From assembly GCA_965203325.1 (NCBI GenBank), contig OZ241875.1, forward strand, positions 1,760,001-1,824,000: 64,000 nucleotides of DNA, in the 5' to 3' direction. Of this stretch, positions 18,223 to 43,124 are shown in pieces. A program made the translations under genes and the position numbers. This DNA comes from a bacterium. Lineage in GTDB: Bacteria; UBA8248. Every line of letters begins with the position of its first letter. The first letter of the stretch is position 1. The notes under the pieces are model-generated. The model had not been told where the DNA came from and ran no database searches. It saw only the letters and a list, made by a program, of their open reading frames with translations.

Positions 18223-18600
18223 GGTTTGCGGCGTGAGACGAGCGTATCCGCCCCTCGTCCGTTTCCTCCTTCGGCGACGAAATTCGCATTTGCGCCGCCC
18301 GGGCGAGGAGAACCCCATCCGAACGGACGATGCCGAAGTCTGCTACATCGGCCTCCTAAAAGCAACTCCCCCGCCCCTTGGCTCGAAACCGAGGCCCCTT
18401 GTCAGGGAGTAGAGGGGACACCCCTCCCGAACGAAAAACCAACCCCCCTGGCCCCCCTTGTCAGGGGGGTAAAGGCGATGCGTCCAACCGGGGGAGTAAA
18501 AGAAAAACTCCCCGGACAAGTGGGGTTGGTGGTTGAACCCGACCGGGGAGGAAGGGTTCACGGCCGAAACCGGCCCCGCTCGGCTCCCGACAAAATAAAG

Positions 18601-22002: not shown

Positions 22003-22080
22003 AGGCCTCACAAACCCTCCCTCCCCGGAGCTGTTGAAAAAACCCCAGAAGCAGTGCTCTAAATTTCACTCCCCCCTTGA

Positions 22081-23598
22081 GGGGGCTGTTGAAAAACCCC
22101 GTTTTGAAGCGGGAGGTATGGCGTCTCACGCGGCTTGGGAGAGGGAGCCCAATCGGCGCGTGAGGCCGCGGGGAACGCGCATTCGGCGTCTCAAGGCGGC
22201 GCAGGCTCTCCACAGAGCGAACAAACGCGCCGCAACAGCGGCGGCGAGCCGCTTGAGGTTCACCGCAGTCGCCGTCAGGTAGGCCTGGATCCTTATGTTC
22301 GCAAGACCCCGGCGCACCGCCCGCGCCAGGCCGTGCCAACTCTTCGCCTCGCCGTGATAGCCTTCGGAGCGACCCATGTGCCGGCGCCACAGCCGACCCT
22401 CCTCCTCCCCACGGCGCGCGTGGCGACGGCGCGCGCGCAACAGCGCCGGATACTCGTGCGGAACCAGCACCGTCCGGCTCGTGCGGGACTTCGACAGACA
22501 ATCGGCCCTGAGCGCGCAGCCCGCGCAATCGCGCGTCCTCGATACATAGTAGCGACCCCGCTCCGTCTCCTTCCGGGGGCGCAGCGTCTTGCCCCCCGGA
22601 CACTTCACCACCTTGTGACGCTCATCGTAGCGGAACAGCTGCAACGGCACCCGGCTCTGGGAAGGCTCCTTCTTCGCCGGTATCACCGCGTCCACCCCCC
22701 GACGCTCCAATGCGCCGTACACCTTCGAGTACGCATAGCCCGAATCCGCCGTCACCACCGCGGGCGCGCGCCCCGTGAGTTCGCAAACCGCATCCAACTG
22801 CGGCTCCATCATCTCCCGCTCGTTCAACGTCCCCTCCGTCACCTCTACGTCGAGGACAACGCCCCGCTCATCGTCCACCACCGCGTGGTGCTTGTAGCTC
22901 GGCTCGAACCCCGCCCGAGCGCTCTTGCGCGCCAGGCGAGCGTCGGGGTCCGTTCGGCTCACAGGACCCGAACCACCGCCGCCGCCCTTCTTCCCGCCCT
23001 CATCCTCCGAGTCGTTCTCCCGCACCACCTTCTCCGCGTGGCGCTCCGCCAGACTCTCCCAGCTCACGTCCGCACGTATCAAAGAGGCGTCCATGTGCAC
23101 CACCTCTCCCGTCGCCACCTTCGCCTCCACGCAAGACTGAACCGTGCGGCGCAATATCTCCTTGAAGCGCTCCTCCCCCCAGCGCTGACGGATACGCGTC
23201 AGGCTCGAATGGTCCGGCAACTCCTCGTCCAGCCTGTACCCGATGAACCACCGGATCGCCAGGTGCGCCTGCGCCTCGCGCAACAGACGCCGGTCGTGGG
23301 CGTAGCCCAGCAGCAGGCCCGCCAGCATCAACCGAACCACCACCTCGGGGTCCAGGCCCGGACGACCGTTGTCCGCGCAATAGCACTCCGCCACTTCCTC
23401 GCGAAGCCAGCTCAAATCCAGTACGCGGTCCACCTGCCGCAATATGTGATCTTCGGGAATCAACTTCTCCAGCGGGCCGGCCACGAACAAGTCCATCTGC
23501 TCGCGCCTCTTGCGATCCAGCATCGAGGGAACTCCCATCTCGGGCGAGGGGGGATACATCCATACGATCACAAAACCAGGGGTTTTTCAACAGCCCCT
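22081..23598 (-). mobile_element. IS1182-family insertion sequence
   Basis: Terminal IRs GGGGCTGTTGAAAAACCCC (22082-22100) / GGGGTTTTTCAACAGCCCC (23579-23597), TTGA direct repeat on both sides, single transposase. Confidence 0.9.
22126..23523 (-). CDS. IS1182-family DDE transposase
   Basis: LIPEDH.LR, NGRPG.DP, LPDHSSLTRIRQRWG, DAS, TDPDA, ADSGY, CxxC insertion, E....EAK..HG..RA..RGL. Confidence 0.92.
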   Translation of the reverse strand: MLDRKRREQMDLFVAGPLEKLIPEDHILRQVDRVLDLSWLREEVAECYCADNGRPGLDPEVVVRLMLAGLLLGYAHDRRLLREAQAHLAIRWFIGYRLDEELPDHSSLTRIRQRWGEERFKEILRRTVQSCVEAKVATGEVVHMDASLIRADVSWESLAERHAEKVVRENDSEDEGGKKGGGGGSGPVSRTDPDARLARKSARAGFEPSYKHHAVVDDERGVVLDVEVTEGTLNEREMMEPQLDAVCELTGRAPAVVTADSGYAYSKVYGALERRGVDAVIPAKKEPSQSRVPLQLFRYDERHKVVKCPGGKTLRPRKETERGRYYVSRTRDCAGCALRADCLSKSRTSRTVLVPHEYPALLRARRRHARRGEEEGRLWRRHMGRSEGYHGEAKSWHGLARAVRRGLANIRIQAYLTATAVNLKRLAAAVAARLFALWRACAALRRRMRVPRGLTRRLGSLSQAA

Positions 23599-25902: not shown

Positions 25903-28356
25903 ATGAATAATAAAGACCCTAAAGATTTATGCTTGAACCTACTGAAAGCTGATTCAGAAGAAAAAGTAATTCAAATTCTTAGAAACGAAAATTATTGGGA
26001 TGACCCAGATTGTTGGCGTTATTTCGATGATAACCCAGGCAACTTTAGCACTTGTGGAAATCAGCAGAGTAGGCCGGACTACGCCCTGGTTGAAAAAGTC
26101 GTAAATTCACTGGACGCTATATTGATAAGAAAGTGTCTTGAAGAGGGTATTAACCCCGAGGACAAAACTTCACCTCGCTCAGTCAGGGAAGCTGTTGCTA
26201 CATTTATTGAAAACTCTCCAAATCCTAAGGGTTCCAGAGCCGGTCTGATTTCTGAATGGGGAAATAAAAAAATAGCTGAAGAATCTCGGCATATTACCAT
26301 TGCCACTACCGGATTTATACCTTCGGATAAGCGGCAACCCTGCATAACAATCACCGATGCAGGCGAAGGACAAACTCCTGCGGAAATGCCAAATACATTC
26401 TTATCAAATACAGGTAACAACAAGGCAAAAATTCAGTTTGTGCAAGGCAAATGGAAAATGGGTGGTACAGGCGTATTAGTATTTAGTGGCCATCACAACT
26501 TCCAATTCATATTGAGTAAAAGATGTCCAGCTATAATGGAAGACAAAAAGAATGAATCAGATAACTAATGGGGTTTTACTATTATCAGAAGGCGAGATCC
26601 TCGGGATGATGAGCGGGTTTCAGTATATGAATATTTAGCTCCATTAAGAGTCACAAATCAGAAAAATGGAGTTTTGAGATTTGCAGCTAGTTCCCTTCCG
26701 ATTTTTCCTGAGGGACGCGAGGCGTATAAAAGAAAGGCCGAATGGGGCAGTGTCGTAAAAGTATACGAGTACGCCACCCAAGGTTTTGGGAGGTCTCATA
26801 TCTTAAGGTCGGACGGGCTTTTCGATAGGATGAATCTTCTTTTACCTGATATAGCTTTACCTATTAGGTTGCACGAATGCAGAAAAAAATACCGAGGGCA
26901 CAGCGCTAGCTTTGACACGTCATTAACTGGGCTAACGGCAAATATTGAATCAAAAAAGGATGAAAATCTCGAAGACATTTTCACATGTCCGATCGATGCC
27001 ACAGGTGAAAAACTAAATGTAAAAATTTACGTGTTCAAAAAAGACAAAGCGAAAACTTACAAAAAAAGTGAAGGAATTCTTTTTTGCGTCAACGGTCAAA
27101 CACACGCACACGTGAGTAAAAGTTTTTTTAGAAGCGAAAAAGTTGGCCTTAGCTATCTGGCTGATTCTATTTTGATAGTTCTTGACTGTAGCAACATGAA
27201 TAAAAGAAGTAGAGAAGACCTTTTTATGAACAGCAGAGACAGACTAAATAAAGGTTTGCCTATATACAAAGAGATTATAGATGCTCTGGTCGACATGCTG
27301 AAAAATCATAAGAGCATTAGAGCTCTTAACGATAAAAGGCGTGATGAAAAATTAGGGGACCAATTAAAAGATAACAAACCTTTAGAAAATATTTTAGAGG
27401 ATTTAGTCAAAAAGAATAATATGTTGTCGAACTTGTTTCGCTCAGGTAGAGCTATACCCACTAACAAAAACAAACCAGGGCCAATCCCCAAACAGGAATT
27501 CATAGGGAAAAAATTTCCCACATTTTTTAGGTTTAAGAACAAGAAAGATGGGGATTCTCTAATAAAACCATGCCCTTTTAACTCAAGATTTAGAGTTACC
27601 TTTGAGACTGACGCCACAAACGAATATTTCAAGCGTGATATTGATCCAGGAATGTTTAACCTAAAAGTCATTTCCAATGGGGTAGGAACTCCCGCGCATA
27701 ATTTTATTGGGCCAAACTTAAGTGATGGCGAAGCAACCCTCAGTGTCAAATTACCTGACAATTTTGATGTGGGAGACCGCTTCGAGATGCGGGCTGAAAT
27801 AGACGACATTAATTGTGTAGAACCTTTTCAAAATACCATAGAAGTAATCGTAGAGAAGGAAATTCCTAAACCAACTAATCCTAATCCTTCACCACGATCT
27901 AAAAAGGAGAAAGGAGGAATAGCACTACCTAAAATTAAAAAGGTAAAGAGAGCGGAATGGGGAGAGTATGACTTCGACGAAAATTCGGCACTTCGAATAG
28001 AACGAGCTGGTGCGGAAGAAAATGAAACCTATGACTTCTTCATTAACGTAGACAATCAATATCTCCTGAGCGAGATGAGAATGACAAAAGACAATCCTGA
28101 ACTGAAACAAGCGCGATATGTTTTCGGGCAAGTTATCCTTGCTTTAGGTCTTATACAAAACCACTCCCAACGCGATAAAAGAAAAAGTGCGGAACAAGAA
28201 ACCGAATACAATGCAGAAGACAATGGAATAGAAAGCTCAGTTGCACAGGTTGGGCAAGCCATATCACCGGTAATTATTCCAATGATCGAATCGTTAGGCA
28301 CTTTAGACTTAGAATCCATTCAGGCGTTTGCGTCCGATATCTATGATGACGATTGA
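25903..28356 (+). pseudogene. Large GHKL (HATPase_c/MORC-like) ATPase protein interrupted by one in-frame TAA at 26566-26568
   Basis: EKVVNSLDA, ITDAGEG, QGKWKMGGTG boxes; ORFs 25903-26568 and 26674-28356 are in the same frame and the intervening bases read open as *WGFTIIRRRDP...EYLAP. Confidence 0.75.
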
Positions 28357-29555
28357 AAATTAGACTTGAGTCTATGAAATAGAACGACTTCTTGGCTGGA
28401 ACGAAGCTTGCCTTTTGAATGTGCGTACCATTTTCTATTTGGCACAATTCGCCACGCTCTTTGGTCTTTAGTATTCGCGAGAGAAGGATATTTGATTTCT
28501 TTAAATCCACAAACACGCATTTCATTAAGATATTTAGGTAGCTGCCACTCAGGGTCAGAAAAGGCTACAAGTTGCACAACTATTGTTTCACTGTCTGAAA
28601 TCTTTGCAAGCGAAGAAAAAGAAGAGCGCAGATTTTTGAAATAATCTACTAGGTATTTCTGCTCACGATTCCCCAATGTGTAATAAGTTTCCCCATTTCC
28701 ATCCAAGGTTCCTGTGATCCAGTACGGTGCGGGAGTTTCTCTCCGACCTTGTATTTGCCATCGATGATATAGGACATGGACTCCAGGGTATGGTGGTGAA
28801 GTTAGAATTAGCTTTGGGGCTTCAACTTTGTTTTTGGAAAAAAAAGTTTTCAGATTAGAGGCGGGCAGACATAAGCAAACAGGATTGATACTCGATTTTG
28901 ACAACCAACTAGGCTTTGTTTCTTTTGCGGATTCTTTGAGAATGGTGGCTCCTGAAACCATTCTCTTGAAATAAAAAATCAGTTTTTCACGAAACTCTTT
29001 TGCTGATGGGATAGCTATTCGAGAATCCAGCGCCCATTGACCTGTCTTAAGAAGGACGCAACGTGCAAAGTTTCTTTGGCGTTGCGTTTTAAGAGAATTT
29101 AACTCAGAAATTGCGAGTGCCAAAAGTTTTCGTATCGGCCAAGTTTGCTTTCCGTTGATATTACGAAGGTATCCATTCTTTTCCCAAGTTGTTTGCAGGC
29201 TTGAAGGTTGACGAAGATTTAATTTGCTTGTGAGTGTCGCAGCCCAAGCGGACAAATCAGAAGCATCATTTTTTGACAACGTAGTTGTCTTCACCTTAGA
29301 TACGAAAATCGACAATTCATTTATATCAGAACCGATTGATTTTCTTCCCAAAGATTGTGCTTCCACTAAAGCTGTTCCGCCCCCCATAAATGGATCAAGG
29401 ATTAAGTCTCCTGGCTCCGTGAACATTTTGATGGCAACTCTAGCAAAGCTTGGTGAACATCGCGCGGGGTAACGATAAAAATCATGAGTCAATCCCGAGA
29501 CCCACGAATGATCATGGATGGCTTTAAGAAAGTCATCCTTGAGTCCATGCTTCAT
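28341..29555 (-). CDS. DNA amino-methyltransferase (probably m4C, alpha-class order)
   Basis: TH.FYRYPAR, SAM motif DPFMGGGT near N-terminus, catalytic TSPPY downstream. Confidence 0.88.
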   Translation of the reverse strand: MKHGLKDDFLKAIHDHSWVSGLTHDFYRYPARCSPSFARVAIKMFTEPGDLILDPFMGGGTALVEAQSLGRKSIGSDINELSIFVSKVKTTTLSKNDASDLSAWAATLTSKLNLRQPSSLQTTWEKNGYLRNINGKQTWPIRKLLALAISELNSLKTQRQRNFARCVLLKTGQWALDSRIAIPSAKEFREKLIFYFKRMVSGATILKESAKETKPSWLSKSSINPVCLCLPASNLKTFFSKNKVEAPKLILTSPPYPGVHVLYHRWQIQGRRETPAPYWITGTLDGNGETYYTLGNREQKYLVDYFKNLRSSFSSLAKISDSETIVVQLVAFSDPEWQLPKYLNEMRVCGFKEIKYPSLANTKDQRAWRIVPNRKWYAHSKGKLRSSQEVVLFHRLKSNFQSSS

Positions 29556-29812: not shown

Positions 29813-31171
29813 ATGCCGAGAAGAGTTGCCATTATCGGTGCGGGGGTCTCGGGACTGGGGGCGGCCTGGGCGCTGAACCGCCACCCCGAGCGGTTCGATT
29901 TCAGGCTCTTCGAGGCGCAGGAACAGGTGGGCGGCAACGCCGTCACCGCCGACATGCCGCAGGACGACGGCACCTCGATCCCCTTCGATATCTCCGTCAC
30001 CGCCTGCATCCCCTCGGTGTACCACCACATTCTTCTGCTGATGCAGATGTACGGAATCGAGCTGCTCGATACCCGGTTCAGCTACAGCGTGAAGTACCGG
30101 GGCGGCGTCTACGCGCACGATTTCGACTCCGACATCAGGCGGCAGCTGAGGCCCGAGATCGAGAAATTCCAGAAACTCTTAAGACGCCTGCAGTGGTTCG
30201 GCGTGCTCAGCCGCTCCCGCTCGCGGCTCCTGGGCGCGCTCAACCCGTTCAACTACGTGAGCATGGGCGCGGTCCTGAACCTGGGAAGATTTTCGGCTGA
30301 TTTCAGATACAAGATATTAAAACCCATGTTCGTCAACTTCCTCATGGCCACGAACGTGTTCGACATGCCCGCATCGCTGTTCTCGCGGTATCTGGAGTTC
30401 TTCGACATCGAATCCGCCACGCCGATGCAGACCTGGGACCGGGGCACGCGCCGCATCTACGAGGCGCTCTCGGCGGATTTCCGCGAAAAAATATATCTGG
30501 GCCGTCCGGTGCGGAAGGTGTACCGGGGCGCATCCGAGGTCGTCGTAGAGGATGAAGCGGGGAATAAGGAGACGTTCGATGCCGTCGTCTTCGCGTGCAA
30601 CGCGAACCAGACGCTGATGATGCTGGATGGGGCGACGAGGTTCGAGAACTGGCTGCTCTCCTCGATACGGTATGAGAGCGAACTGCACAACCACACGGTC
30701 GTCCATTCGGACGCCTCGGTGCTGCCGGATAACGACGTCCGGGCGCTCGCTACCCGCAGCAACCACATCGAACAATACGGCGCGCGGCCCGACAACTACG
30801 AGATCACCTACATCATGCACAACCAGCAGCCCTGGGCGAAGCGCTCGGACAAGCCGTGCCTGGTGACCTACAACCCCGTCAGCCGAATCGATGAGGACAA
30901 GATCATCAAGCGGTGGTGGTTTCAGCACATCGTCCACGACGTGCCCCACATCGCCTTGCTCATCCACCTGTTCCGCTTCGCGCAGGGGAGGAGGCGGACG
31001 TGGCACTGCGGCGCCCACACGCTCATCAACAGCCAGGAGACCTGTTTCGTCACCGGCCTCGCCGCGGCGAGGCAGCTGGGGGCGGACTATCCGTTTCAAG
31101 ATTCAGAAGCCAGGAAGTGGTTCAACTTCTACGGGCGCACGATGTACGGCCGGCGCTTCAAAAAGGCGTGA
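29813..31171 (+). CDS. FAD-dependent oxidoreductase (amine-oxidase fold, COG2907-like lipid desaturase/reductase type)
   Basis: RVAIIGAGVSGLGAAW, FEA...VGGNA, VHSD.SVLP, ITY.M, LVTYNP, QGRRRTWHCGA. Confidence 0.75.
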   Translation: MPRRVAIIGAGVSGLGAAWALNRHPERFDFRLFEAQEQVGGNAVTADMPQDDGTSIPFDISVTACIPSVYHHILLLMQMYGIELLDTRFSYSVKYRGGVYAHDFDSDIRRQLRPEIEKFQKLLRRLQWFGVLSRSRSRLLGALNPFNYVSMGAVLNLGRFSADFRYKILKPMFVNFLMATNVFDMPASLFSRYLEFFDIESATPMQTWDRGTRRIYEALSADFREKIYLGRPVRKVYRGASEVVVEDEAGNKETFDAVVFACNANQTLMMLDGATRFENWLLSSIRYESELHNHTVVHSDASVLPDNDVRALATRSNHIEQYGARPDNYEITYIMHNQQPWAKRSDKPCLVTYNPVSRIDEDKIIKRWWFQHIVHDVPHIALLIHLFRFAQGRRRTWHCGAHTLINSQETCFVTGLAAARQLGADYPFQDSEARKWFNFYGRTMYGRRFKKA

Positions 31172-31383: not shown

Positions 31384-32202
31384 ATGATGCACGCTCATCT
31401 CGTCCGCACCGCTTTCCTTGTTCTCGCGCTCTGCGCTTTCTTTCTGGCTCATCCGCCTGCGCCGCCGCACGCGGAGGGCGCGACGCCCGAGGAAAAAGGG
31501 CTTCAGATCGCGCGCGATACCCGCGAGAGAGCCAAGGGCTTCGGAAACTTCACGGCCGAGCAGTCCATGGTGCTGCGCAACAAGCACGGTCAGGAGAGCC
31601 GGCGCCAACTGCGCGTGAAGGTGCTCGAGACGGACGGAGGCGGCAACAAGAGCCTGTTCGTCTTCGATCGCCCGCGCGACGTGAGGGGAACCGCGCTGCT
31701 CGTCCACGCCCACAAGAAGAAGAACGACGACCAGTGGCTCTACCTGCCCGCTCTGAAACGCGTCAAGCGCATCAGTTCGTCGAACCAGTCGGGCTCGTTC
31801 ATGGGCAGCGAATTCGCCTATGAGGACATGGGCACCCAGGAGGTGGAGAAATTCACCTACCGCTACCTGCGCGACGAGCCCTGCGGCAAGCTGACGTGCA
31901 CGGTCGTCGAGCGCTTCCCGACGAACAGGCGCTCGGGCTATCGCCGCCAAATCGTCTGGCAGGACAAGGGCGAGCTTCGCGCCTGGAAAGTGCAGTACTA
32001 CGACCGGAAGAACTCGCACTTGAAGACGCTCACGGTGAAGAAGTACAAGCAGTATCTGGGCAAGTACTGGCAGGCGCACGAGATGAACATGGTGAACCAC
32101 CTCACAGGCAAGAGCACCGTGCTGAGTTGGAAGGACTTCAAGTTCCGCACCAGGCTCAAAGCCAGCGAATTCACGCGAACCGGCCTGAAGCGGGTGCGCT
32201 GA
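31384..32202 (+). CDS. LolA-like outer-membrane lipoprotein-sorting / periplasmic lipid carrier
   Basis: Signal peptide; F..P.DVRGT.LL, DDQWLYLPALKRVKRIS, SFMGSEF.YED, YYDR....LKTL. Confidence 0.85.
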   Translation: MMHAHLVRTAFLVLALCAFFLAHPPAPPHAEGATPEEKGLQIARDTRERAKGFGNFTAEQSMVLRNKHGQESRRQLRVKVLETDGGGNKSLFVFDRPRDVRGTALLVHAHKKKNDDQWLYLPALKRVKRISSSNQSGSFMGSEFAYEDMGTQEVEKFTYRYLRDEPCGKLTCTVVERFPTNRRSGYRRQIVWQDKGELRAWKVQYYDRKNSHLKTLTVKKYKQYLGKYWQAHEMNMVNHLTGKSTVLSWKDFKFRTRLKASEFTRTGLKRVR

Positions 32203-33458
32203 TGCCGCCCCGCGCCGCTTTTCCCCGCGCGGTGCTGGCCGCCGTCCCCATCCTGGCCGTTTTCCTTTTCATCGGGACGAGCCTCGGGGCCGAAAGCATC
32301 GAGCACGAACTCTCCGGCAGCCTGGACGTCGACGGCCGGTGGTATCCCCAAACAGGCGCCCATCCCGAACAGCGCGCGCACGCGAGCGGCTTCGCAGCGG
32401 AGCCGAAGCTCCATCTCGAAGGCGGGGGGAACTGGAGTTTCACGATCTCGCCGTTTTTCCGCTACGACGGCGCGGACTCACGCCGCACCCACGCCGATTT
32501 GCGCGAGGCCTATCTTCTCATGTTCGGTGAAGCCGGCGACGGGGAATGGGAGTTGCGCCTGGGTGTGGACCGCGTGTTCTGGGGCGTCACCGAATCGCAG
32601 CACCTGGTCGACATCATCAACCAGACCGACCTCGTCGAGCATCCCAACAAGGAAAGCAAGCTGGGCCAGCCCATGGCCCACCTCACCTGGTCGGCGGAGT
32701 GGGGCATCCTGGAGTTTTTCGCCCTGACCTATCACCGCGCGCGCACCTATCCGGGCCGCCACGGCCGCCTGCGCTCCTCGATTCCCATAGACGACGAGCA
32801 CGTCTCATACGAGAACGCCGCCGGGGAGTGGCGCGTGGACCTCGCCGCCCGCTACAGCCACAGTTTCGGGCCTTTCGATTTAGGCCTCAGCGTATTCGAC
32901 GGCACCAGCCGGGATCCCTTTATCACCCCGCACCTGGACGAGCGCGGCGCGCTGACCCTGCGCCAGCACTACGAACCAATCCTTCAGTTCAGCGTGGACG
33001 CCCAGCTCACAATCGAGTCGTGGCTGCTCAAGCTCGAAGCCCTTCACCGCGAAGGCGCGCGGAACCTCCTGGGAATGGAAGAGGACTACGCCGCTTTCGT
33101 CATGGGCGGGGAGTACACCTTCAATTCCATCTGGGGCTCGGCCGCCGACCTCGGCCTCCTCGCCGAATGGAATTACGACGAGCGGCGCGAGCGTTCGAAC
33201 TCCGAGTTCCAGAACGACCTCTTCTACGCCGTGCGCCTGGGACTCAACGACGCCCAGAGCACGGAGATCATCGCCGGCGTTCTCGCGGACGCGGATCATT
33301 CCACGCGCACCATGAGCTTCGAACTGAGGCGCCGCCTCTCGGACCAGTGGTCCATGAAGCTCGAAGCGATTGTGCTGATGGACGTGGATGAGGAAGACAT
33401 CATCTACGACACGAGGCGGGACAGCTTCGTGGCCCTGAACGTGACGTACAATTTCTAG
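32202..33458 (+). CDS. Outer-membrane beta-barrel protein of the type accompanying RND/LolA-like pairs
   Basis: Translationally coupled (TGATG); signal peptide, 'DLREAY', 'G...VFWG..E....VDIIN', C-terminal 'VTYNF'. Confidence 0.75.
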   Translation: MPPRAAFPRAVLAAVPILAVFLFIGTSLGAESIEHELSGSLDVDGRWYPQTGAHPEQRAHASGFAAEPKLHLEGGGNWSFTISPFFRYDGADSRRTHADLREAYLLMFGEAGDGEWELRLGVDRVFWGVTESQHLVDIINQTDLVEHPNKESKLGQPMAHLTWSAEWGILEFFALTYHRARTYPGRHGRLRSSIPIDDEHVSYENAAGEWRVDLAARYSHSFGPFDLGLSVFDGTSRDPFITPHLDERGALTLRQHYEPILQFSVDAQLTIESWLLKLEALHREGARNLLGMEEDYAAFVMGGEYTFNSIWGSAADLGLLAEWNYDERRERSNSEFQNDLFYAVRLGLNDAQSTEIIAGVLADADHSTRTMSFELRRRLSDQWSMKLEAIVLMDVDEEDIIYDTRRDSFVALNVTYNF

Positions 33459-33538: not shown

Positions 33539-35587
33539 TCAGGAAGTGAGGGCGACCGCCCGTTGGTCGCTTTCCGCCCGGTCACCCACCGCCCGATCAG
33601 ATGAGAAGATCGGGCGCTTCGACTTGATTCGGAGCTTGAGGCTCTTGCGAGGGGTGCAGGTCGGGAACGGATTGATTTTGACCGGGTAGCTCGATGGCAG
33701 CACTTCAAGCTCGAAGTAGTAGGCGATCATCAAAAGGTTGAGCGTCATTTGATATTCCGCCACTCTCGGGCCGAGGCAGGTGTGCGTACCGAAACCGAAC
33801 GCCCCGTAAGCCCCGTGTTTCTTGTGCTCCTCGCGCCCGGGAAGATACCGGTCGATGTCGAACTTCTGCGGATCCGGATAGTTCTCCTCCATGTAGTGCA
33901 CGGCGGTGGACGCCAGCACGACGCGAGCATCGAGGGGTAGTTCATAACCCTCCACGATGCAGCTGTTCATGACGGTTCTCAACTGCAACGGCACGCTAGG
34001 GTAGATCCGAAGGGTTTCGAGAATCAGCCGGTGGGCGGTGTCGATGGCCTCAGGCGTGATGTCCTCCGGATCGGGGTCTCCTTCGGCGAACAGCGCCTCG
34101 GCTTCCCTGCGCACGCGCTGAAAGACGTCCGGATGGGAGACCATCAAATAGAGCCCGAACGCGACGGCGGTGCCCATATACATGGCCGCGACGAACGGTA
34201 TGATCATCATGAACCTGGTATCGGTATCCGGAAAGTACTGCGGGTCGCTGGCGTGCAGGCTGAGCAGGTCGTCGATCAGGTCGCGGGGCTGGTTTTCACG
34301 CTGCGCCGGGGTGTGCGAGTTCCGGATCATGGAATAGACGTGGTCGATTCGCCGCCGGATGGCTTGCATTCGCGGCGTTCGCATGAAGAACTTCGGCAAA
34401 ATCTTCTGCGCGTAGGTGATCAACATGCGGTTCTTGTATTTGTGGATGTCGTCCACGTATTCTGAAAAGTCCATGCTGAACAGGAGCCGGGATACCTGGC
34501 CGGACATGAGGGTGCGGCTTGCGTCCTTGGCGACGAGCACGTCGCCCACGTTCCACGAATCAAGCGCAAGCCGTATCTCTTCGAACAGATCTCCGAGACG
34601 GTCGTTCAGGCGGCTCCGGGAGGAGGCCATCTGGAACGCCTTGCGCATACGGAAGTGTTCGGCCCCGTCCATGCCCGGCAGGCTTCTCGACGCGCCGAGC
34701 ACGGTCTCCATCCCCTCCATGGTTTCCTTCGATCGCAGGTGCATCCGACCATTCCGGTTGACCCAGATGTTCGCATCGTTCCCGGCGATGACGAAAACTC
34801 TCTTCTTGGAAAAGGGAGCCTTGATCACGAAGACCGGGCCGTAGTCGCGGTAAAGGTCGGCCAGCAGTCTGGACGTATTCCCTTGCCAAAGTGAATCTTT
34901 GCGGAGCATTTTCAACAGGCTCACGTTGGGAATGGGTTTCGTCGCTATCGCGATGGAGCGACTGACCGATGTCTCCGCGACGGCGGTGGCGACGGATCGA
35001 CTGATGCGGTCCAGCATGCCCAGCAGTTCGATACGCTCGCGTGAAGCCTCGTAGTCGCGCGGTTGCAGAAGAAACCTGAATGCGTCGCAGGCATCGGCAA
35101 GTCCGATGATGATGGCGTCACGGGGATAGGGTATGTCGTCCCCCAAGATCGTCTCGACGATCCGCTGGCGGACTATCGACCGGGACTCGCCATTGGACAT
35201 GCCGTTGTCCGCTTTCGCCGCGTCTCGCGAGAGAGACCAGAAACCGCCGTTCGTATAGTACAGGACCCCGTTTTTCGACAACCGTTCGAGAGAATGATAC
35301 AGGATATCATCCGACGTACCGGCGATTTTCTCGACCCAGTAACTGACGGTGCGTGGCTCCGGATCGGCGGCAATGGTCGCCAGAACGGGGTCGAGGAGAT
35401 CGTCTCCCATAGGTGATGGATCGTCCAACGAAAGCATCTCTTGAGCGGTGTCGATACGGGACTCGAGGTCGAGGTCCGCCAGCGCGGCGCCGGCGAGAAC
35501 GCACGAGAGATTCCAGCCCGCCACCTGTTCGAGATAGCCGCTCTCTTCGTTCAGCAACAGGAGTATGATTTCTTCCGTCAGCCTCAT
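33539..35587 (-). CDS. GPP34/GOLPH3-like domain fused to cytochrome P450
   Basis: N-terminal 'LTEEIILLLL...G....LAGA.LADL.LE.RI......P.GDDLLD..L..I' GPP34-like segment; P450 ETLR (ExxR), F.IDR, heme motif FGFGTHTCLG. Confidence 0.85.
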   Translation of the reverse strand: MRLTEEIILLLLNEESGYLEQVAGWNLSCVLAGAALADLDLESRIDTAQEMLSLDDPSPMGDDLLDPVLATIAADPEPRTVSYWVEKIAGTSDDILYHSLERLSKNGVLYYTNGGFWSLSRDAAKADNGMSNGESRSIVRQRIVETILGDDIPYPRDAIIIGLADACDAFRFLLQPRDYEASRERIELLGMLDRISRSVATAVAETSVSRSIAIATKPIPNVSLLKMLRKDSLWQGNTSRLLADLYRDYGPVFVIKAPFSKKRVFVIAGNDANIWVNRNGRMHLRSKETMEGMETVLGASRSLPGMDGAEHFRMRKAFQMASSRSRLNDRLGDLFEEIRLALDSWNVGDVLVAKDASRTLMSGQVSRLLFSMDFSEYVDDIHKYKNRMLITYAQKILPKFFMRTPRMQAIRRRIDHVYSMIRNSHTPAQRENQPRDLIDDLLSLHASDPQYFPDTDTRFMMIIPFVAAMYMGTAVAFGLYLMVSHPDVFQRVRREAEALFAEGDPDPEDITPEAIDTAHRLILETLRIYPSVPLQLRTVMNSCIVEGYELPLDARVVLASTAVHYMEENYPDPQKFDIDRYLPGREEHKKHGAYGAFGFGTHTCLGPRVAEYQMTLNLLMIAYYFELEVLPSSYPVKINPFPTCTPRKSLKLRIKSKRPIFSSDRAVGDRAESDQRAVALTS

Positions 35588-35686: not shown

Positions 35687-35730
35687 TGGGGCCATTATGG
35701 CCCAGTAAAACGATTGATTTCAAGTATTTT
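35687..35730 (-). promoter_or_regulatory. Putative sigma70-like promoter shared with the RND gene
   Basis: Minus strand TTGAAA-N18-CATAAT; TGGGGCCATTATGGC is identical at 39344-39358. Confidence 0.5.
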
Positions 35731-35774: not shown

Positions 35775-35959
35775 GAGGTCGTTGAAACAGTCCCGATTTT
35801 CAGGGGGTGGAGGGGCAATCAAATCGACCGGGGAGGCGCCGCCCCGTAGGGACAGGCCTCCGTGCCTGTCCTGATTCGAACCATCCCGCACCTGATTCGA
35901 ACCATCCCGCAAAAGGACAACCACAACACCGACCAACCACGGGTTTTTCAACAGCCCCC
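35775..35959. mobile_element. MITE with IS1182-like ends, internal GTAG-REP and 21-bp tandem duplication
   Basis: GAGGTCGTTGAAA ... TTTTTCAACAGCCCC; GTAGGGACAGGC..GCCTGTCC; CCTGATTCGAACCATCCCGCA x2 (35870-35911). Confidence 0.65.
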
Positions 35960-36699
35960 TATCCGCCGCCCATGGCCGCGAGCCGCTCGACCGCTTTTTG
36001 GTGAATCAGCCGCTCCAAGGCGTCTTCGGGCGGTAATTTTACCGCGCGCTCGAGCAGGCCGCGCGCCCTTGCGCGGTTCTTATCGGCATCCAGGCTCAGA
36101 AGACCGAGCGCGTACTCGAACAGCGCCGATTTGTCCCGAGGCACCAGTTCGAGCGCCCGCCCGAAATGGGCGAGCGCCTCCTCTTCGCTCGCCCCGTAGA
36201 GCAGACCGGCGAAGAATCCCCCTGCGCCGACGGCACCCGCATGCCAAGCGGCCAGGCTGACGTGGGCGGCCGCCATTTTCGGGTCCAGGCGAAGCGCCTC
36301 CTGAATCGCATCGCGCACTTTGGTTGCGTAACCCTCCTTGAGCGCCTTAAGCGCGCCGCCCACCTGCGCCTGGCGGCCCATGGCGTGGGCCAATTGGAGA
36401 TGGGCCTCGGGGTTGGCCGCGTCCAGCCGAACCGCCTCCCGCGCGAGTTTCTCGGCCCGCTTGAACAAGCCTGCTTTTTCACCCTCCGGCGCGATGTAGT
36501 AGCCGTGAATCGCCAGTGAATCGGCGGCCAAGGCATAGCCCTCCGAGGTTGCGATAACCCGGGCGAGATCGGCGGCATCCACGAAGCGGCCCTCGGCATA
36601 CGCGGCGCGCGCCTCTTCGATCGACTGCGCGCAGGCATTCCCCGCAAACAAGAACGTGCAGGCAATTGTCAGGTAGATACGGAATAGGGACTTGTACAT
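35959..36699 (-). CDS. Exported TPR-like helical protein
   Basis: Signal peptide; repeats 'A.RLD..NPEAH', 'ALRLDP...AAH', 'F.RALEL.P'. Confidence 0.75.
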   Translation of the reverse strand: MYKSLFRIYLTIACTFLFAGNACAQSIEEARAAYAEGRFVDAADLARVIATSEGYALAADSLAIHGYYIAPEGEKAGLFKRAEKLAREAVRLDAANPEAHLQLAHAMGRQAQVGGALKALKEGYATKVRDAIQEALRLDPKMAAAHVSLAAWHAGAVGAGGFFAGLLYGASEEEALAHFGRALELVPRDKSALFEYALGLLSLDADKNRARARGLLERAVKLPPEDALERLIHQKAVERLAAMGGG

Positions 36700-36906: not shown

Positions 36907-39222
36907 TCATTGCGTCTTTCGGTCGAGGGCTATCAGCAGGGGCGGCAGGAGCAGCAAATCCAGGATCAGCGCGAAGCTGAGCGTGAGCGCCACCAGGAGG
37001 CCGAGCATCCAGGTGATCGCGAATCCCGACGTGGCGAACACCAGGAAGCCCAGCACCAGGATCGAGGTCGTGGAGAACAGCGCAAAACCTACCGAACGGA
37101 AGGTGGTGCGCACCGCCTCGGGTGAGGAAAGGCCCTCGCGGCGCCCCTTCAGATACTTGCTCATGAAGTGAATCGTGTCGTCGACGACGATCCCGAAGGC
37201 GATCGCGGTCACGAGAGAACCGGCGGGCCCCACCTCGCTGTAGAGATAACCCCAGACGCCGAAGGCCATGGCAGCGGGGATGAGGTTGGGCATGAGGCTG
37301 ATGAGGCCGAGGCGCAGGCTCTTGAAAATCCCGATCAGGATCAGCGAAATGAGGACCATGCCGGTAAGCGTGCCCCACAACATGCTCAAGGTGTTCCGAA
37401 TGGCCAGATGGGCGAAGATGAGGCTGTACCCCGACGCCCCTTTCGCGAGGCCGGGCGCGTTGGCGCTGAGCCATTTCTGCCCGCGCGCTTCGAGCGCGCG
37501 CAACTCCTCGGACTTGAGTCTTTTGAGTGTGACGGTCATGCGCGTGGCGGATTTGGCGACGTTGATGCGATTGTTGAGGTCCATGCCGAAGGGAACCGAA
37601 AACTCGTAGAGCAGCAGATACTGCGCGGCAAGCCGGGAGTTTTCCGGCAGCCGGTAGAAGGCGGGATTATCGCCGTTCATGTTCTTGTTGAGGCGCTTCA
37701 TGATGTCCGTAAACACCTGGACATGCGCCACTTCCGGCTGGGCGCGGTACCATCCGGCGAAAGCCTCGACTTTTTTCAGGTACGCAGGATCGGTGATTCC
37801 GGCTTCGCGCCCGGAGTCGAGGGAGTACTCCAGGGTTTCCACGCCGGTCAGGTTCTCGATGACGAAGTCCGTGTCGCGCCGGAACTCGTAACGCTCATCC
37901 AGATGCTGCGTCCAGTTGTCCGTCAGCTCGACGCGGGGCACACCCGCCACGAGCGCGATCGCAACGACGGCCGCAGACCAGAGCAGGAACGTGCGGCGCG
38001 CGACGACGAAGGCGCCGAGCCGATCGAAGAGGCCGGAACCCCCGGCGCCCGCCTGTCGCGCGCGCAATGGCAGGACCGACAGCAGCGCCGGCAGAAGCGT
38101 CATGGAATAGGCGTAGGCGCACAGCATGCCGAACGCCACCAGGTTGCCGAGTATCCGAAAAGGCGGAGAGTCCGAGGCGTTCATGCTGAGGAACCCGATG
38201 ATCGTCGTGGCCGTCGTCAGGAACACGGGCCAGGCATTGTGGCGCAGCGATTCGGCAATCGCCGCGTCCCTGTCCAGACCTCCCCGCATGCCTGAAACGA
38301 TCGAATCGACGACGTGGACCGAGTGCGCGATGGCGAGCGTCATGATGATGAGGGGAACGCTGGAGTTGGCTGCGTTGAGCACCAGGCCGATCCAGCCGAT
38401 GACGCCCATGGCCGAGATGACGGTGAAGATGACGACGGCGATGAGGGACAGCGTGCCGAACAGGGAGCGCAGGAGGATGGCGGCGACGAACACGATGACG
38501 AGGAATGCCGCGGGCGCGAGAATCCCCATATCGTCCTGGGCCGCTTCCGTCAGGACCTGGTTCACGAAGACGTTGCCGGTAACGTGATATTCGATGTCCG
38601 GGTGCTTCGCCCGGGCCTTGGCCAGGAGGCCGCGGATATGGTTGTAAATCCGTATCTCCGCGGCGTCGGAACGCTCGGGCAAGGCGAAAATGACGACCAG
38701 ACCGGCGACGCGCCCGTCTCCCGAGACGAGACGGCCTACGACACTGCTCTCGCTCAGCGCAATCTTCTTGATCCGCGCGAGGTCTTCGTCGCCGAGCGAG
38801 CCCGCGTCGTCCACGAGGCGCTCCACGATCAAGTCGTCCCCTTCCGCCTCGGTGTGGTTATAGTTGACGAGGGAGTCGACCCGCGTGGCCCTAGGCACGC
38901 GCCACAAGTCCTCGGTCAACTCTTCGATGGCGCCGAGCGCCTGCCGCGTGAATACCGACCCGCCCTTGGGCGCGACCGCGACCACCGCCGCATTGGTCGC
39001 CGAATAAGTGGCTTCCATGGCGTCGAATGCGACGAGTTCGGGATTGCCCTCGTCCAGCATGTCGCGCCAGTCGTTGGAGATAACGATGGTGCGGAGGCCG
39101 ACCGCCAGAACCAGCATGACGCCCAGGGCCGCCGCGAGGAAGAGCCATCGGCGCCGCAACAAGAACGCAATGTAGCGGTTTAGAGGTGCGGACATCAGGG
39201 GCCTCGCTATCCGGCGGCTCAT
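36907..39222 (-). CDS. MMPL/RND-family (sterol-sensing-like) lipid transporter
   Basis: Two-fold repeat with ~12 TM; 'LT..TT..GF.S...SD.PPF', 'GIVVDDTIHF', periplasmic loops. Confidence 0.9.
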   Translation of the reverse strand: MSRRIARPLMSAPLNRYIAFLLRRRWLFLAAALGVMLVLAVGLRTIVISNDWRDMLDEGNPELVAFDAMEATYSATNAAVVAVAPKGGSVFTRQALGAIEELTEDLWRVPRATRVDSLVNYNHTEAEGDDLIVERLVDDAGSLGDEDLARIKKIALSESSVVGRLVSGDGRVAGLVVIFALPERSDAAEIRIYNHIRGLLAKARAKHPDIEYHVTGNVFVNQVLTEAAQDDMGILAPAAFLVIVFVAAILLRSLFGTLSLIAVVIFTVISAMGVIGWIGLVLNAANSSVPLIIMTLAIAHSVHVVDSIVSGMRGGLDRDAAIAESLRHNAWPVFLTTATTIIGFLSMNASDSPPFRILGNLVAFGMLCAYAYSMTLLPALLSVLPLRARQAGAGGSGLFDRLGAFVVARRTFLLWSAAVVAIALVAGVPRVELTDNWTQHLDERYEFRRDTDFVIENLTGVETLEYSLDSGREAGITDPAYLKKVEAFAGWYRAQPEVAHVQVFTDIMKRLNKNMNGDNPAFYRLPENSRLAAQYLLLYEFSVPFGMDLNNRINVAKSATRMTVTLKRLKSEELRALEARGQKWLSANAPGLAKGASGYSLIFAHLAIRNTLSMLWGTLTGMVLISLILIGIFKSLRLGLISLMPNLIPAAMAFGVWGYLYSEVGPAGSLVTAIAFGIVVDDTIHFMSKYLKGRREGLSSPEAVRTTFRSVGFALFSTTSILVLGFLVFATSGFAITWMLGLLVALTLSFALILDLLLLPPLLIALDRKTQ

Positions 39223-39387: not shown

Positions 39388-39424
39388 TCCTGCGCCGTAT
39401 TCTCCGGACGGCGCGCGGGAACCA

Positions 39425-39712
39425 GGGGTTGTTGGAAAAGCCCCCTCATCAGGGGATGAAGGCACCCCCCCCTACCCCCCCTTGTCAGGGGTCAAACGCG
39501 AGTGATGAACGAGCGTTTGCATAAGCCATTGACGAGAAACACATCGTCTTGCAAAACCTCCCTCTTCGGTCGGTTTTGACCCCTGACAAGGGGGGGTAGG
39601 GGGGGGTGGTTTTCAGGGCGAGGAGAGCGTGCCGAATCCGCCTTTGGCCGTCATTCCGGCGAAAGCCGAAATGACGGTGAACTCTGTTGCATTGGGCTTT
39701 TTCAACAAGCCC
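39425..39712. mobile_element. MITE with IS1182-like ends containing nested palindromes
   Basis: GGGGTTGTTGGAAAAGCCC ... GGGCTTTTTCAACAAGCCC; internal IR CCCTACCCCCCCTTGTCAGGGGTCAAA / TTTGACCCCTGACAAGGGGGGGTAGGG and hairpin CCGTCATTCCGGC-GAAA-GCCGAAATGACGG. Confidence 0.7.
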
Positions 39713-39898: not shown

Positions 39899-40831
39899 AT
39901 GAAACTGATTTCAAAACGGGAAAACACTTATAAACAAATGATCGTTGCGGCGGTCGCTTTAGCCGTGTTTCTTCTCCCGGCGTTCGCACCCGATGCGCGC
40001 GCGGCGGATTCGAATGCGCAAGCTGAGGGTTCGAGATGGTACTTCGGCCTGAACGTGCCGGTCATGTTCATCGACGACTCGGACAGCGTCGAGAGCGGAG
40101 CAGCGCAAGCACAAGGAGCCCCCCTGCCAGTCCCATACAGGGCGAACGCCCTCACGGAATACGCTACGGGGTACAGGATCAGCGGCGTGGTGGGCCGTGA
40201 ATTCGGCGCGGGCCTGCGCGCCGACGCCGAGCTCTTCTTCGCGAGGGCCGAGGTCGACAAGCTGATCTACAAGGGACGGACCACAACCGTGCCGCAACTA
40301 GGCACTTTTGATATCGCTGGCGACCATTCCATCCCCGTCTCCGGCTCGGCGAGCCAGTTGGGCGCCATGGTGAACGTCTGGTACGACTTTAACGCGGGCT
40401 CCAAATGGAGGCCTTACATCGGCGGCGGCTTAGGACTCGTCCGGGTCGACTGGGGCGACGTGAAGTATGACCGCAACGAGGTCGCGCAGGGGGCTGCGAA
40501 CCAGCTTGCGCTCATCGGTGCGTGTGCGCAGCTTATGCAACCTCCGGGCTGCACTCTGCCTCCACCGGTCGAACAAGGAGCCCTGGCCCTGGCCACCCTG
40601 CCCCCGGGGACCGTGCCGGACCTTTCCGACACGGATACGGTGCTCGCCTTTCAACTCGGCGCGGGGGTGGGCTACCAGTATTCTGACGCCATTACCATTC
40701 AGTTGGGCTACCGCATGCTGAAAGCCGGCGATTTGGAGTTCAGCGGCAGTAGCGCCATGGGTTCAACGGCCACGGCGACGACGGAAATGCTGGTCCATCT
40801 CTTCGAGATAGGGATACGCTATCGGTTCTAG
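39899..40831 (+). CDS. Small outer-membrane beta-barrel (OmpA-like/opacity/P44-Msp2 type) with long loops
   Basis: Signal peptide, 'MVNVWYDF', 'PYIGGGLG', 'AFQLGAGVGY', C-terminal 'GIRYRF'. Confidence 0.8.
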   Translation: MKLISKRENTYKQMIVAAVALAVFLLPAFAPDARAADSNAQAEGSRWYFGLNVPVMFIDDSDSVESGAAQAQGAPLPVPYRANALTEYATGYRISGVVGREFGAGLRADAELFFARAEVDKLIYKGRTTTVPQLGTFDIAGDHSIPVSGSASQLGAMVNVWYDFNAGSKWRPYIGGGLGLVRVDWGDVKYDRNEVAQGAANQLALIGACAQLMQPPGCTLPPPVEQGALALATLPPGTVPDLSDTDTVLAFQLGAGVGYQYSDAITIQLGYRMLKAGDLEFSGSSAMGSTATATTEMLVHLFEIGIRYRF

Positions 40832-40969: not shown

Positions 40970-42001
40970 ATGAAAACCGAGCGAATCGAACGCAGAGAAA
41001 CAGCCTCGCTTTACCCATTCCCGGAAGGCTGGTACTTCATCGCCACCCGAAAAACGATAGAGAAGAAGAAGCTGATCCAAAGAACCTGGATGGGCGAGCA
41101 GATCGTCGTCTGGTGCGACGATGAGGGGCGCATCTGCGTGGCCGAGGACCTCTGCCCGCACCTGGGTTCCGAACTCGGGCCCGAAGTCGGCGGCGTGGTG
41201 CGGGACGGCTGCCTCGTTTGTCCTTTTCACGGGTTCGAGTACGACGCCACCGGTCAATGCGTGGCCACGCCCTACGCGCCGGCGCCCAGAACCGCCAGGC
41301 TTAAGGTTTTCGAAACCCGCGAAATCCTGGGTCTCGTCTTCGCCTGGTGGGGGCTGGGCGGACGCCCGCCGCAATGGCGTCTCCCCGAAGAGCCGAGCGG
41401 AGACGACTGGAGCGACCTCGAAACCTGGAGCGTGCGGTTCTCGGGGCATCCCCAGGAAACGACCGAGAACTCCGTCGACGACGGACACCTGCGCTACGTG
41501 CACGGCTTCGGCAGCGTGAACCGGGTCGGAACGATAGAGGTGGAGGGTTCCTACCTCAAGAGCTGCTTCGACTTCACGCGAAGCCAGACCCTCGCCGGGA
41601 TGAACATCTACACATACGACGTTTCCGCCGTCACCCACGTGCACGGGCTGGGCTATTCGTTCGTCGAGGTTCACGAGGACGGCATCGGCATGGATACGCG
41701 CCTGTGGGTGCTCGCGACGCCTATCGACGGCGAGGTCATCGAAATGGTGCTGGTCAGCCAGCTAAAGCGAATACGGAAGCCGAAGCGGCCGATCTTCGGC
41801 ATGCGCTTTCTGCCGTCCGGTCTTCGCACCCGGCTCATGAACAAAATCATCATAGCGGCCCAGAAGCGCGACGTTTTATCGGACGTCGTCATATGGGACC
41901 GGAAACATTACGTGCCGCGCCCCCGCCTGTGCAGTTCCGACGGGGAGATTGGCGTCTTTCGGCGCTATTGCGAGCAGTTCTATCCGGATCGGACGGATTG
42001 A
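40970..42001 (+). CDS. Rieske non-heme iron oxygenase (KshA/Neverland-like sterol oxygenase type)
   Basis: FPEGWY, CPHLG...CPFHG Rieske cluster, ENSVDDGHLRYVH iron site, 'D..IW..K.Y...P.L...DG.I..FRR...QFY' C-terminus. Confidence 0.85.
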   Translation: MKTERIERRETASLYPFPEGWYFIATRKTIEKKKLIQRTWMGEQIVVWCDDEGRICVAEDLCPHLGSELGPEVGGVVRDGCLVCPFHGFEYDATGQCVATPYAPAPRTARLKVFETREILGLVFAWWGLGGRPPQWRLPEEPSGDDWSDLETWSVRFSGHPQETTENSVDDGHLRYVHGFGSVNRVGTIEVEGSYLKSCFDFTRSQTLAGMNIYTYDVSAVTHVHGLGYSFVEVHEDGIGMDTRLWVLATPIDGEVIEMVLVSQLKRIRKPKRPIFGMRFLPSGLRTRLMNKIIIAAQKRDVLSDVVIWDRKHYVPRPRLCSSDGEIGVFRRYCEQFYPDRTD

Positions 42002-42092
42002 GTTCGGAGGGGCGAGGCCGGCGGGAGAGCCGTCCGCGCCATCGCCCGCGCGGGTTTCGCCGGACACGAAGAGAGAAAGGACACGCCACGCC

Positions 42093-43124
42093 ATGGAAAT
42101 AGGCAAACTATCGAAAGAGCTCAAGGATGCCTATCAAGAGGGGAACGTCACCCGCCGCGTGCAAGACTTCGAGGGCTGGATCGACCGGGCGGCGGAGTCC
42201 GACGGCGCGAGCGGGTACGACCACACCGAAACGGTGAAGGCCTACTACGACCTTTGCAGCGGTTTCATGGTGTGGGGTTGGGGCGAATCCCTGCATTTCG
42301 CGCCCCTCTCGCCGAACGAGAGTCTGGAGGACTCGAAAGTCCGGCATCAGCGGCTGATGATCGACAAACTGGAGTTGCAGAGGGGCATGACGGTGATCGA
42401 CGTCGGCTGCGGCATCGGCGGCCCGATGCGCCGCGTCGTCCGTGAGGCCGGCGTCCGGGTCGTCGGGATCAACATCAACAAAATCCAGCTGGAGAGGGCG
42501 AAGAGGTTGAACGCCGAGGCGGGGCTCGACCACATGATCGATTACGAGGCGTGCAGCTTCATGGATATGAGCACCATCGGGGACGAGGCGTTCGACCGGG
42601 GCTACGCCATCGAGTCGACGTGCCACGCGCCGGACAAACAACGCGCCTTCGCGGAGATATTCCGCGTCCTGAAACCCGGCGCCCTGTTCTGGGGCCAGGA
42701 GATGTGCCTGACGGAGAAGTTCGACCCGAACGACGCCCGGCACCGGACCATCAAGCGGGAGCTCATGCGCGGCATTGCGCTCAAGGAGGTCGCGACGTTC
42801 GGGGAAGTGAACCAGGCGCTCGAAGCGGCGGGATTCCAAGTCGTCGAAGGGATGGACCGGGAGGTCCGGGAGGGGCCGTCCACACCGTGGTATCAACCCA
42901 TGGAGAGTCGGCACGGGACGCTGGGCAACGCCTTGCGCAGGCTTCCGCAGGGCCGCAGGGCGGTCCTCGCGGGCTCGAAGCTGGCCGAGGTGGTCCGGCT
43001 GTTTCCGAAGGGTTCCGCGGAAGTCGTCCGGCTCCTGGATCGGACCGCGGACGCCTATGTCGCGGGCGGCAAATCGGGCATCTTCACGCCGCTGTACTGC
43101 TTCCTGGCCCGCAAACCCCTTTAG
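42093..43124 (+). CDS. Sterol C24-methyltransferase (SMT/ERG6 family)
   Basis: YYD....F..WGWGESLHFA, DVGCGIGGP, YAIESTCHAP, EIFRVLKPG, PWYQP, C-terminal GGKSGIFTPLY.FLARKP matching the ERG6/SMT layout. Confidence 0.88.
   Translation: MEIGKLSKELKDAYQEGNVTRRVQDFEGWIDRAAESDGASGYDHTETVKAYYDLCSGFMVWGWGESLHFAPLSPNESLEDSKVRHQRLMIDKLELQRGMTVIDVGCGIGGPMRRVVREAGVRVVGININKIQLERAKRLNAEAGLDHMIDYEACSFMDMSTIGDEAFDRGYAIESTCHAPDKQRAFAEIFRVLKPGALFWGQEMCLTEKFDPNDARHRTIKRELMRGIALKEVATFGEVNQALEAAGFQVVEGMDREVREGPSTPWYQPMESRHGTLGNALRRLPQGRRAVLAGSKLAEVVRLFPKGSAEVVRLLDRTADAYVAGGKSGIFTPLYCFLARKPL

Follow-up and report, generated by a model that had tools for sequence, protein, structure and literature searches.

What does a bacterium do with a cytochrome P450 that carries at its N-terminus a GPP34 domain, the domain of eukaryotic GOLPH3 and Vps74? 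The question is raised by one gene in the window, the 64,000-nucleotide stretch of contig OZ241875.1 that was analysed here. Its product, called P0001, is a GPP34-P450 fusion in which the heme site is intact and the acid-alcohol pair of the I-helix is absent. Judged from its sequence and its gene company, P0001 likely (with a rough probability of 0.6) oxidises a sterol from the host or from neighbours, as one step of a cassette that also encodes a Rieske oxygenase, a methyltransferase, a flavin adenine dinucleotide (FAD) enzyme and an MMPL permease.

The architecture itself is known. It is that of GPP34_L of sponge symbionts, where 656 of 663 long GPP34 forms are GPP34-P450 fusions, and where GPP34_L occurs in most of 16 phyla and ranks among the most widespread symbiont marker genes (Ferreira et al. 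2025, PMC11706023). P0001 shares with it the architecture, the length of about 680 aa and the association with sponges. GPP34_L was treated as one class and proposed to be an effector that binds phosphatidylinositol 4-phosphate (PI4P), whereas we find Tyr-type and acid-Thr fusions with different neighbours and a lost PI4P pocket; the searchable main text of that paper contains 0 mentions of sterol, helix or heme. A search of the open-access literature, with subscription journals mostly outside its coverage, found no case of a Tyr combined with an I-helix deletion and none that links GPP34-P450 to sterols. What this analysis adds to the print found is the active-site variant, the division into two types, the loss of the PI4P pocket and the sterol context.

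The fusion gene and its rebuilt I-helix

The initial annotation had proposed a GPP34-like N-terminus fused to a P450 in one open reading frame (ORF), and this is confirmed. Pfam places GPP34 (PF05719) at residues 3-205 (E 3.3e-27) and p450 (PF00067) at residues 219-644 (E 9.9e-42), both above the curated cut-offs. We collected 929 homologues with E <= 1e-10 from 7997 scored candidates, and among the best 120 of them 118 contain both Pfam domains, so the fusion is not an artefact. The start at 35587 matches the homologue starts and has GAGAGG 9 nt upstream. The 718-aa version starting at 35695, as called by the ORF finder, was rejected, because all 4 of the 4 sequencing runs aligned to the window have an extra G behind 35687, which would put the upstream ATG out of frame, and the homologues start at 35587. 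Among the 12 listed of 16 read-versus-contig indels, none falls within the fusion gene. The bacterium is sponge-associated: 7 of the 14 runs that share at least half of the sequence words are labelled sponge metagenome (2 studies), and the other 7 carry coded organism names.

P0001 has the P450 fold, the cysteine of FxxGxxxCxG (FGFGTHTCLG, 597-606), ExxR (ETLR, 524-527) and the propionate-binding basic residues. The I-helix stretch, IPFVAAMYMGTAVA (463-476), lacks the canonical (A/G)Gx(D/E)T pair and reads AAMYMG, and none of the best 120 homologues has an acid-Thr pair, which bears out the loss claimed by the initial annotation. H311, R315, E524, R527, R537, H602 and C604 are invariant in 96 of 96 aligned homologues and Tyr470 is kept in 95 of 96, so the active site appears to be maintained. 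In the full-chain model (predicted local distance difference test, pLDDT, 83.6; predicted template modelling score 0.77), residues 454-462 and 464-484 are helical with a break at 463. When aligned to CYP184A1, this stretch lies opposite IFLLAGHETTATALAF (the AGHETT region); Tyr470 falls on the conserved Thr, and the Glu is left facing a gap of one residue. The I-helix is also the only hydrophobic peak along P0001.

To set this variant among its relatives, a profile search of 50%-identity representatives was used as a wider survey. AG(L/I)DT was found in many GPP34-P450 fusions and unfused relatives, and the Thr is invariant in 25 acid-Thr fusions. The anchor-to-anchor span of the I-helix could be parsed in 159 of 271 proteins, one of which was mis-anchored: 126 proteins have a span of 28 residues (104 of them scored Tyr, 22 other), and 32 have one of 29 (28 acid-Thr, 4 other). 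A quick tree covering 99 P450 domains, rooted at the midpoint only and with rows P0204 and P0255 mislabelled by the motif pattern, places the Tyr group on one side of a branch with a Shimodaira-Hasegawa-like approximate likelihood ratio test (SH-aLRT) value of 100. By sequence, then, the GPP34-P450 class splits into acid-Thr fusions and a short-helix Tyr clade, a split of GPP34_L defined by one active-site signature. We infer that the Tyr state is derived, because the canonical motif stands in all other P450s.

The two residues of the acid-alcohol pair normally serve in proton delivery and keep the hydroperoxy intermediate stable (PMC12937128). Therefore the Tyr clade would need a substitute, and the conserved hydroxyl of Tyr470 is a natural candidate. 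By analogy, loss of the pair does not imply non-hydroxylation chemistry, because CYP7A1, CYP8B1 and P450cin are hydroxylases without the canonical pair. Like these, and like CYP710/ERG5, CYP74 and CYP152, P0001 has acid and/or alcohol replaced and the heme thiolate kept. The I-helix has a His-Thr motif in CYP51 and an AQDAS-type motif in the sterol C-22 desaturases CYP710/ERG5, and P0001 differs from the latter when compared by motif alone; neither the Cys-loop insertion nor the I-helix Arg-Pro or Asn that mark the partner-free P450s CYP74 and CYP152 is found in it. We know of no P450 without the canonical Thr that combines a Tyr with a one-residue deletion. The same conclusion on hydroxylation is supported by EryF, in which Ala stands where Thr normally does (PMC12937128).

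In the fold search, the P450 domain gave generic P450 matches up to Z 36.9. It resembles CYP51 and the CYP184A1/CYP46A1-like folds (Z 35-37, rmsd (root-mean-square deviation) about 3 A), but shares only 15-20% identity with such P450s and has a different I-helix. A CYP51 role was rejected, given 17-20% identity and a separate CYP51-like P450 gene in the same de novo sterol clusters.

Two variants of the Tyr helix were seen besides. In eight loci (L114, L115, L116, L118, L119, L124, L126 and L030) a sub-group reads AGHY, where the His before the Tyr is a second polar residue of the distal site. In two others (L098:8458-10485 and L099:8422-10431) a paralogous fusion lies between an epoxidase-cyclase gene and an MMPL gene and has an unusual heme loop, NGLDTHSCAG, with a 29-residue Tyr helix.

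Gene company and the methyltransferase

The initial annotation had named a membrane lipid or sterol as substrate, and gene context, which it had not used, now supports the sterol. We sampled the best 80 of at least 496 confirmed GTDB stretches, from about ten phyla (a number that binning errors may inflate), in which the cassette partners are mostly 55-90% identical to those of the window. At least one sterol-type enzyme gene was found in 83 of 92 short-helix fusion loci, in 0 of 8 acid-Thr fusions and in 0 of 22 unfused acid-Thr P450s; 12 fusions were unparsed by the pattern in this count, and 11 of these, read by eye, are 10 Tyr and 1 acid-Thr. The 92 loci contain a Rieske gene in 66, a divergent sterol methyltransferase (SMT) in 47, MMPL in 45, the FAD enzyme in 42, a conventional SMT in 13, ERG4/24 in 7 and a squalene epoxidase-cyclase in 5. 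Gene order varies (59 orders across the 80 loci) and linkage is kept, with the divergent SMT as the commonest immediate neighbour (<=500 bp from the fusion in 31 of 80 loci). Four acid-Thr fusions adjoin a major facilitator superfamily transporter and a kinase-like gene instead. No recurring regulator was found among the neighbours.

Several loci include sterol-synthesis genes. Besides a second P450, ERG4/24 and SdmA/B-like genes, which L023 has as well, L018, L043, L071 and L106 contain an epoxidase-cyclase fusion. The fusion of L106, a 94%-identical orthologue of P0001, sits between an epoxidase-cyclase/P450/ERG24/SdmAB-like block and the SMT, and thus comes on top of the CYP51-like gene. 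In these respects the loci are like published symbiont sterol clusters: several of our loci have epoxidase-cyclase, CYP51, ERG24, SdmAB and SMT genes on the flanks of the fusion, and the gene order of L023 fits the Nitrospira cluster, with two SMTs spaced three genes apart (Brown et al. 2023, PMC10070321). GPP34-P450, a KshA-like Rieske gene and the FAD gene do not appear in the table of that paper. Unlike those clusters, the genome of the window (95.5% complete) has a tailoring set and gave no match to a sterol cyclase. It contains two P450s, one short GPP34, one ERG4/24-like gene and 10 Fer2 matches, none of the last in the locus.

Within the genus the genes also co-occur. Nine of 18 congeners have the full fusion, and the Rieske gene occurs in exactly the same 9. 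The SMT and the FAD enzyme are each present in 8 of the 9 fusion genomes and in G017 (79% complete), and a cyclase in 4, all within the 9. The other 8 congeners have none of these genes with the queries used; 6 of them gave only short-GPP34 matches, and G007, which has only a fragment of the fusion, gave one such match too.

The methyltransferase of the cassette forms its own group in a quick tree (44 rows, against 13 conventional rows; SH-aLRT 100). The motif GWGxxFHF is common to all functional 24-SMTs, and of 11 SMTs that showed no activity on desmosterol and 24-methylenecholesterol, 7 differ at residues of this kind (bioRxiv 10.64898/2025.12.19.695621). The divergent SMT may therefore act at another position such as C-26, or on a non-sterol, and its clade is a candidate for the C-26 methyltransferase. 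C-26 sterol methylation, which bears on the oldest animal biomarkers, is still without an enzyme; conventional SMTs of symbionts have sterol-methylating activity in vitro (PMC10070321). The inactive clustered SMTs of Brown et al. 2023 would by elimination be the "2 of 2" genes, and their gene order suggests a match to the SMT type of the window.

The features of the window are summarized in Table 1. The methyltransferase remnant beside the permease is a whole SMT gene at the same place in L002, L101, L105 and L163. A motif scan of the cassette found no redox-partner gene.

Table 1. Fusion gene, its functional sites and its neighbours in the window
Feature	Position	Strand	Remark
GPP34-P450 fusion gene (P0001), Tyr-type	33539..35587	-	682 aa, single ORF without stop
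GPP34/GOLPH3-fold domain, residues 1-210	34958..35587	-	PI4P arginines absent, GxFW hairpin kept, isoelectric point (pI) 4.3
P450 domain, residues 215-660	33608..34945	-	pI 9.2
I-helix, residues 454-484	34136..34228	-	one residue short of acid-Thr relatives
Tyr470 codon, acid-alcohol position	34178..34180	-	Tyr in 95/96 aligned homologues
Cys604 codon, predicted heme thiolate ligand	33776..33778	-	invariant in 96/96 aligned homologues
Sigma-70-like consensus match TTGAAA-18-CATAAT, upstream of fusion	35694..35723	-	weak: 2 found vs 1.0 expected
FAD oxidoreductase, cassette member	29813..31171	+	Amino_oxidase family; best-scoring relatives of solved structure: LkcE, E 1.6e-26; 2b9w, E 7e-7
LolA-like periplasmic carrier	31384..32202	+	domain match
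Probable outer-membrane barrel, start uncertain	32274..33458	+	weak DUF1302 match, E 0.0015
Tetratricopeptide repeat (TPR) protein, signal-like N-terminus	35959..36699	-	upstream of fusion, in congeners too
Conventional-type sterol methyltransferase remnant, last 29 codons	36806..36892	-	intact in relatives at same place
MMPL/RND permease	36907..39222	-	sterol-sensing-domain match
Small outer-membrane beta-barrel	39899..40831	+	domain match
Rieske oxygenase, KshA_C domain; tightest fusion partner	40970..42001	+	best solved relative KshA, E 8e-24
Divergent sterol-methyltransferase-like gene	42087..43124	+	Sterol_MT_C E 1.7e-16; Region I GWGESLHF

Some further observations concern the surroundings. 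A 244-aa membrane protein (L043:13831-14562) lies near the cassette in 6 loci and matched nothing in Pfam, NCBIfam or the PDB; the homologue in this genome (G000:C1:334782-335513), possibly a sterol isomerase, has a weak EBP/EXPERA match (E 0.14), a lead only. Elsewhere in the genome (G000:C1:2942890-2949012; L189), an MpaB/Lcp-like oxygenase gene stands between two further MMPL paralogues of 57-60% identity. In the window, a low-GC island (25903-29555; 0.40-0.44) holds an N6/N4 DNA methylase; two of its ORFs, of 221 and 560 aa and without annotation, may be one split gene. Intergenic repeat-like DNA at about 35800-35960 and 39400-39650, with very high contig depth and cross-joints, also matches 18405-18481 and 22069-22100; around the TPR-MMPL block it possibly represents small mobile repeats.

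The GPP34 domain and related fusions

The GOLPH3 fold of the N-terminal domain is real, as judged from its model (pLDDT 87.3), which matches Vps74 with Z 18.4 and GOLPH3 with Z 18.3 (PDB 2zih and 3kn1; rmsd 2.3-2.4 A, 188-191 residues aligned). The next fold match reaches only Z 4.4; winged-helix matches of this strength were set aside as weak and due to a common arrangement. The PI4P site of GOLPH3 consists of W81, R90, R171 and R174 near a hydrophobic hairpin (PMC2806290), and we followed these positions in a profile built from 77 bacterial domains, of which 75 belong to fusions and 2 stand alone; the profile aligns to GOLPH3 at E 6e-10. The R90 slot is occupied by A in 30, V in 25, I in 17, T in 4 and M in 1, with Arg in 0 of 77. 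At the R171 slot, E or D stands in 74 of 77 domains, and about ten residues ahead of it are deleted; the R174 slot has Arg in 2 of 77. P0001 has Ala32, Asp93 and Leu96 at the three positions. The hairpin (GxFW) is kept, with Phe116 in 74 and Trp117 in 72 of the 77 domains. Trp25, present in 75 of 77, falls on W81 by phmmer and is shifted relative to W81 in the profile alignment. The domain is strongly acidic (net charge median -19, range -26 to -9, n=77), and its pI of 4.3 contrasts with the 9.2 of the P450 domain.

P0001 is thus like GOLPH3/Vps74 in its fold and its hydrophobic beta-hairpin, but unlike them in the absent arginines, the deletion, the strong acidity and the fusion to an enzyme. 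Since the pocket arginines are gone and the domain is strongly acidic, eukaryotic-type PI4P binding is unlikely for the bacterial GPP34, and the PI4P targeting that the initial annotation took over from GOLPH3/Vps74 finds no support. General membrane contact through the retained hairpin is possible.

GPP34 also occurs in other company. A family of about 392 aa (L104:7901-9076, P0274-P0319), absent from the architectures given in the accessible text of PMC11706023, joins GPP34 to a four-His membrane domain (by consensus, in roughly 45 of the 50 proteins aligned, with lengths of 380-460 aa) with a cytochrome-b-like His pattern and weak DUF4405/DUF4079 matches only; the gene next to it in L104 has a CxxCH motif. 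P0370 is a GPP34-patatin fusion, and P0127 and P0273 have two GPP34 domains ahead of the P450. These other fusions would fit a docking module for lipid or redox enzymes. A stand-alone GPP34 gene of this genome (G000:C1:682277-682930; L001:10278-10931) has an unrelated context, and congeners have similar short genes whether or not they carry the cassette. GPP34 matches in long congener frames were rejected as new fusions, being short GPP34 genes inside extended frames.

Probable function, alternatives and meaning

Because the fusion travels with sterol-type enzyme genes, we favour sterol modification over the hijacking of host membranes. P0001 would be a P450 that depends on O2 and ferredoxin and modifies, at the inner membrane, a sterol brought in from outside, the sterol moving in and out through the MMPL/LolA/barrel system. 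The acidic GPP34 domain would anchor the enzyme at this membrane through its hydrophobic hairpin, or dock it to a partner protein; electrons would come from a ferredoxin encoded elsewhere in the genome, and the hydroxyl of Tyr470, or of the substrate, would replace Thr in protonating Fe-O2. SMTs require an isolated side-chain double bond (PMC10070321), the SMT is the commonest immediate neighbour and the hydroxylase pair is gone; for these reasons side-chain desaturation, with an olefin made or moved for the neighbouring methyltransferase, is by a narrow margin the likeliest single reaction, and plain hydroxylation is nearly as likely.

Several points weigh against this sterol reading. The substrate and the reaction of the fusion are deduced from sequence. 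Tyr470 lies on the acid slot in the N-terminal register and on the Thr slot in the C-terminal register, and the structure matches do not favour sterol P450s, as CYP184A1 (Z 36.9) and CYP51 (Z 36.0) tie. Nine of the 92 short-helix loci are without partner genes. The counts are not independent, for the loci are related, some are duplicates and the genes are physically linked; the window's own genes served as baits in the search for neighbours, and the acid-Thr loci had shorter flanks (8 kb) and shorter contigs. Region I of the cassette SMT reads GWGxxLHF rather than GWGxxFHF and its Thr78 slot is Ser, while the solved relatives of the FAD enzyme, LkcE and 2b9w, act on a polyketide or on fatty acids.

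These last two points also speak for a cassette and P450 that tailor a non-sterol lipid (a fatty acid or another terpenoid) with repurposed sterol-like genes, as do the top fold match of the P450 domain, an oleate-bound P450, and the absence of a cyclase match in this genome and in 5 of the 9 fusion-bearing congeners. We regard this as unlikely, given that in L018, L023, L043, L071, L106, L098 and L099 the fusion lies within or next to de novo sterol clusters, that the cassette contains Sterol_MT_C and KshA_C domains, and that conventional SMTs or their remnant stand at the same locus.

Less probable is a P450 domain that binds heme and a ligand without oxygenation, Tyr470 ligating or blocking the iron, as a sensor or carrier of a sterol or gas that serves the cassette. 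Both proton-delivery residues are lost, the helix is shortened and the cassette lacks a redox-partner gene by motif scan, but no regulator recurs among the neighbours, the sister fusions retain D-T, and the Rieske neighbour is likewise without a linked reductase.

Nearly the same low standing is given to a P450 free of redox partners, a peroxygenase or a hydroperoxide/epoxide isomerase, acting on the product of the Rieske or FAD enzyme. The missing acid-alcohol pair, the 9/9 co-occurrence of the Rieske gene within the genus and the lack of a ferredoxin in the locus would fit it; the missing CYP74-type Cys-loop insertion, CYP152 Arg-Pro and conserved I-helix Asn would not.

Very improbable is a secreted effector that diverts phagosome maturation, its GPP34 binding PI4P of the host (Ferreira et al. 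2025), while the P450 acts on the host membrane: the true GOLPH3 fold, the Trp near the pocket (75/77) and a family reported solely in sponge symbionts and expressed there (PMC11706023, accessible text) agree with it, but the R90/R171/R174 equivalents are lost and the net charge is -9 to -26 in 77/77, hydrophobicity (with no signal predictor run) gives no transmembrane or signal-like segment, the neighbours are metabolic, and GPP34 has other fusion partners as well, a patatin domain and a membrane domain that contains His.

In conclusion, the sterol reading replaces the published PI4P-effector idea for GPP34_L with one that is directly testable, its function being deduced from sequence, and the cassette supplies candidates for the missing enzyme of C-26 sterol methylation. 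A Tyr-based oxygen-activation site, if true, would be unusual P450 chemistry. It is a tentative and rather doubtful extension that a symbiont-wide Tyr-type P450 clade with such a rebuilt site desaturates or cyclises the sterol side chain and that the partner SMT methylates C-26, yielding the hallmark side chains of sponge sterols. If this were true, symbionts and not sponges would make the aplysterol-type, 26-methylstigmastane-precursor or cyclopropyl sterols, and the bacterial GPP34 would be an enzyme-docking module, not a PI4P effector.

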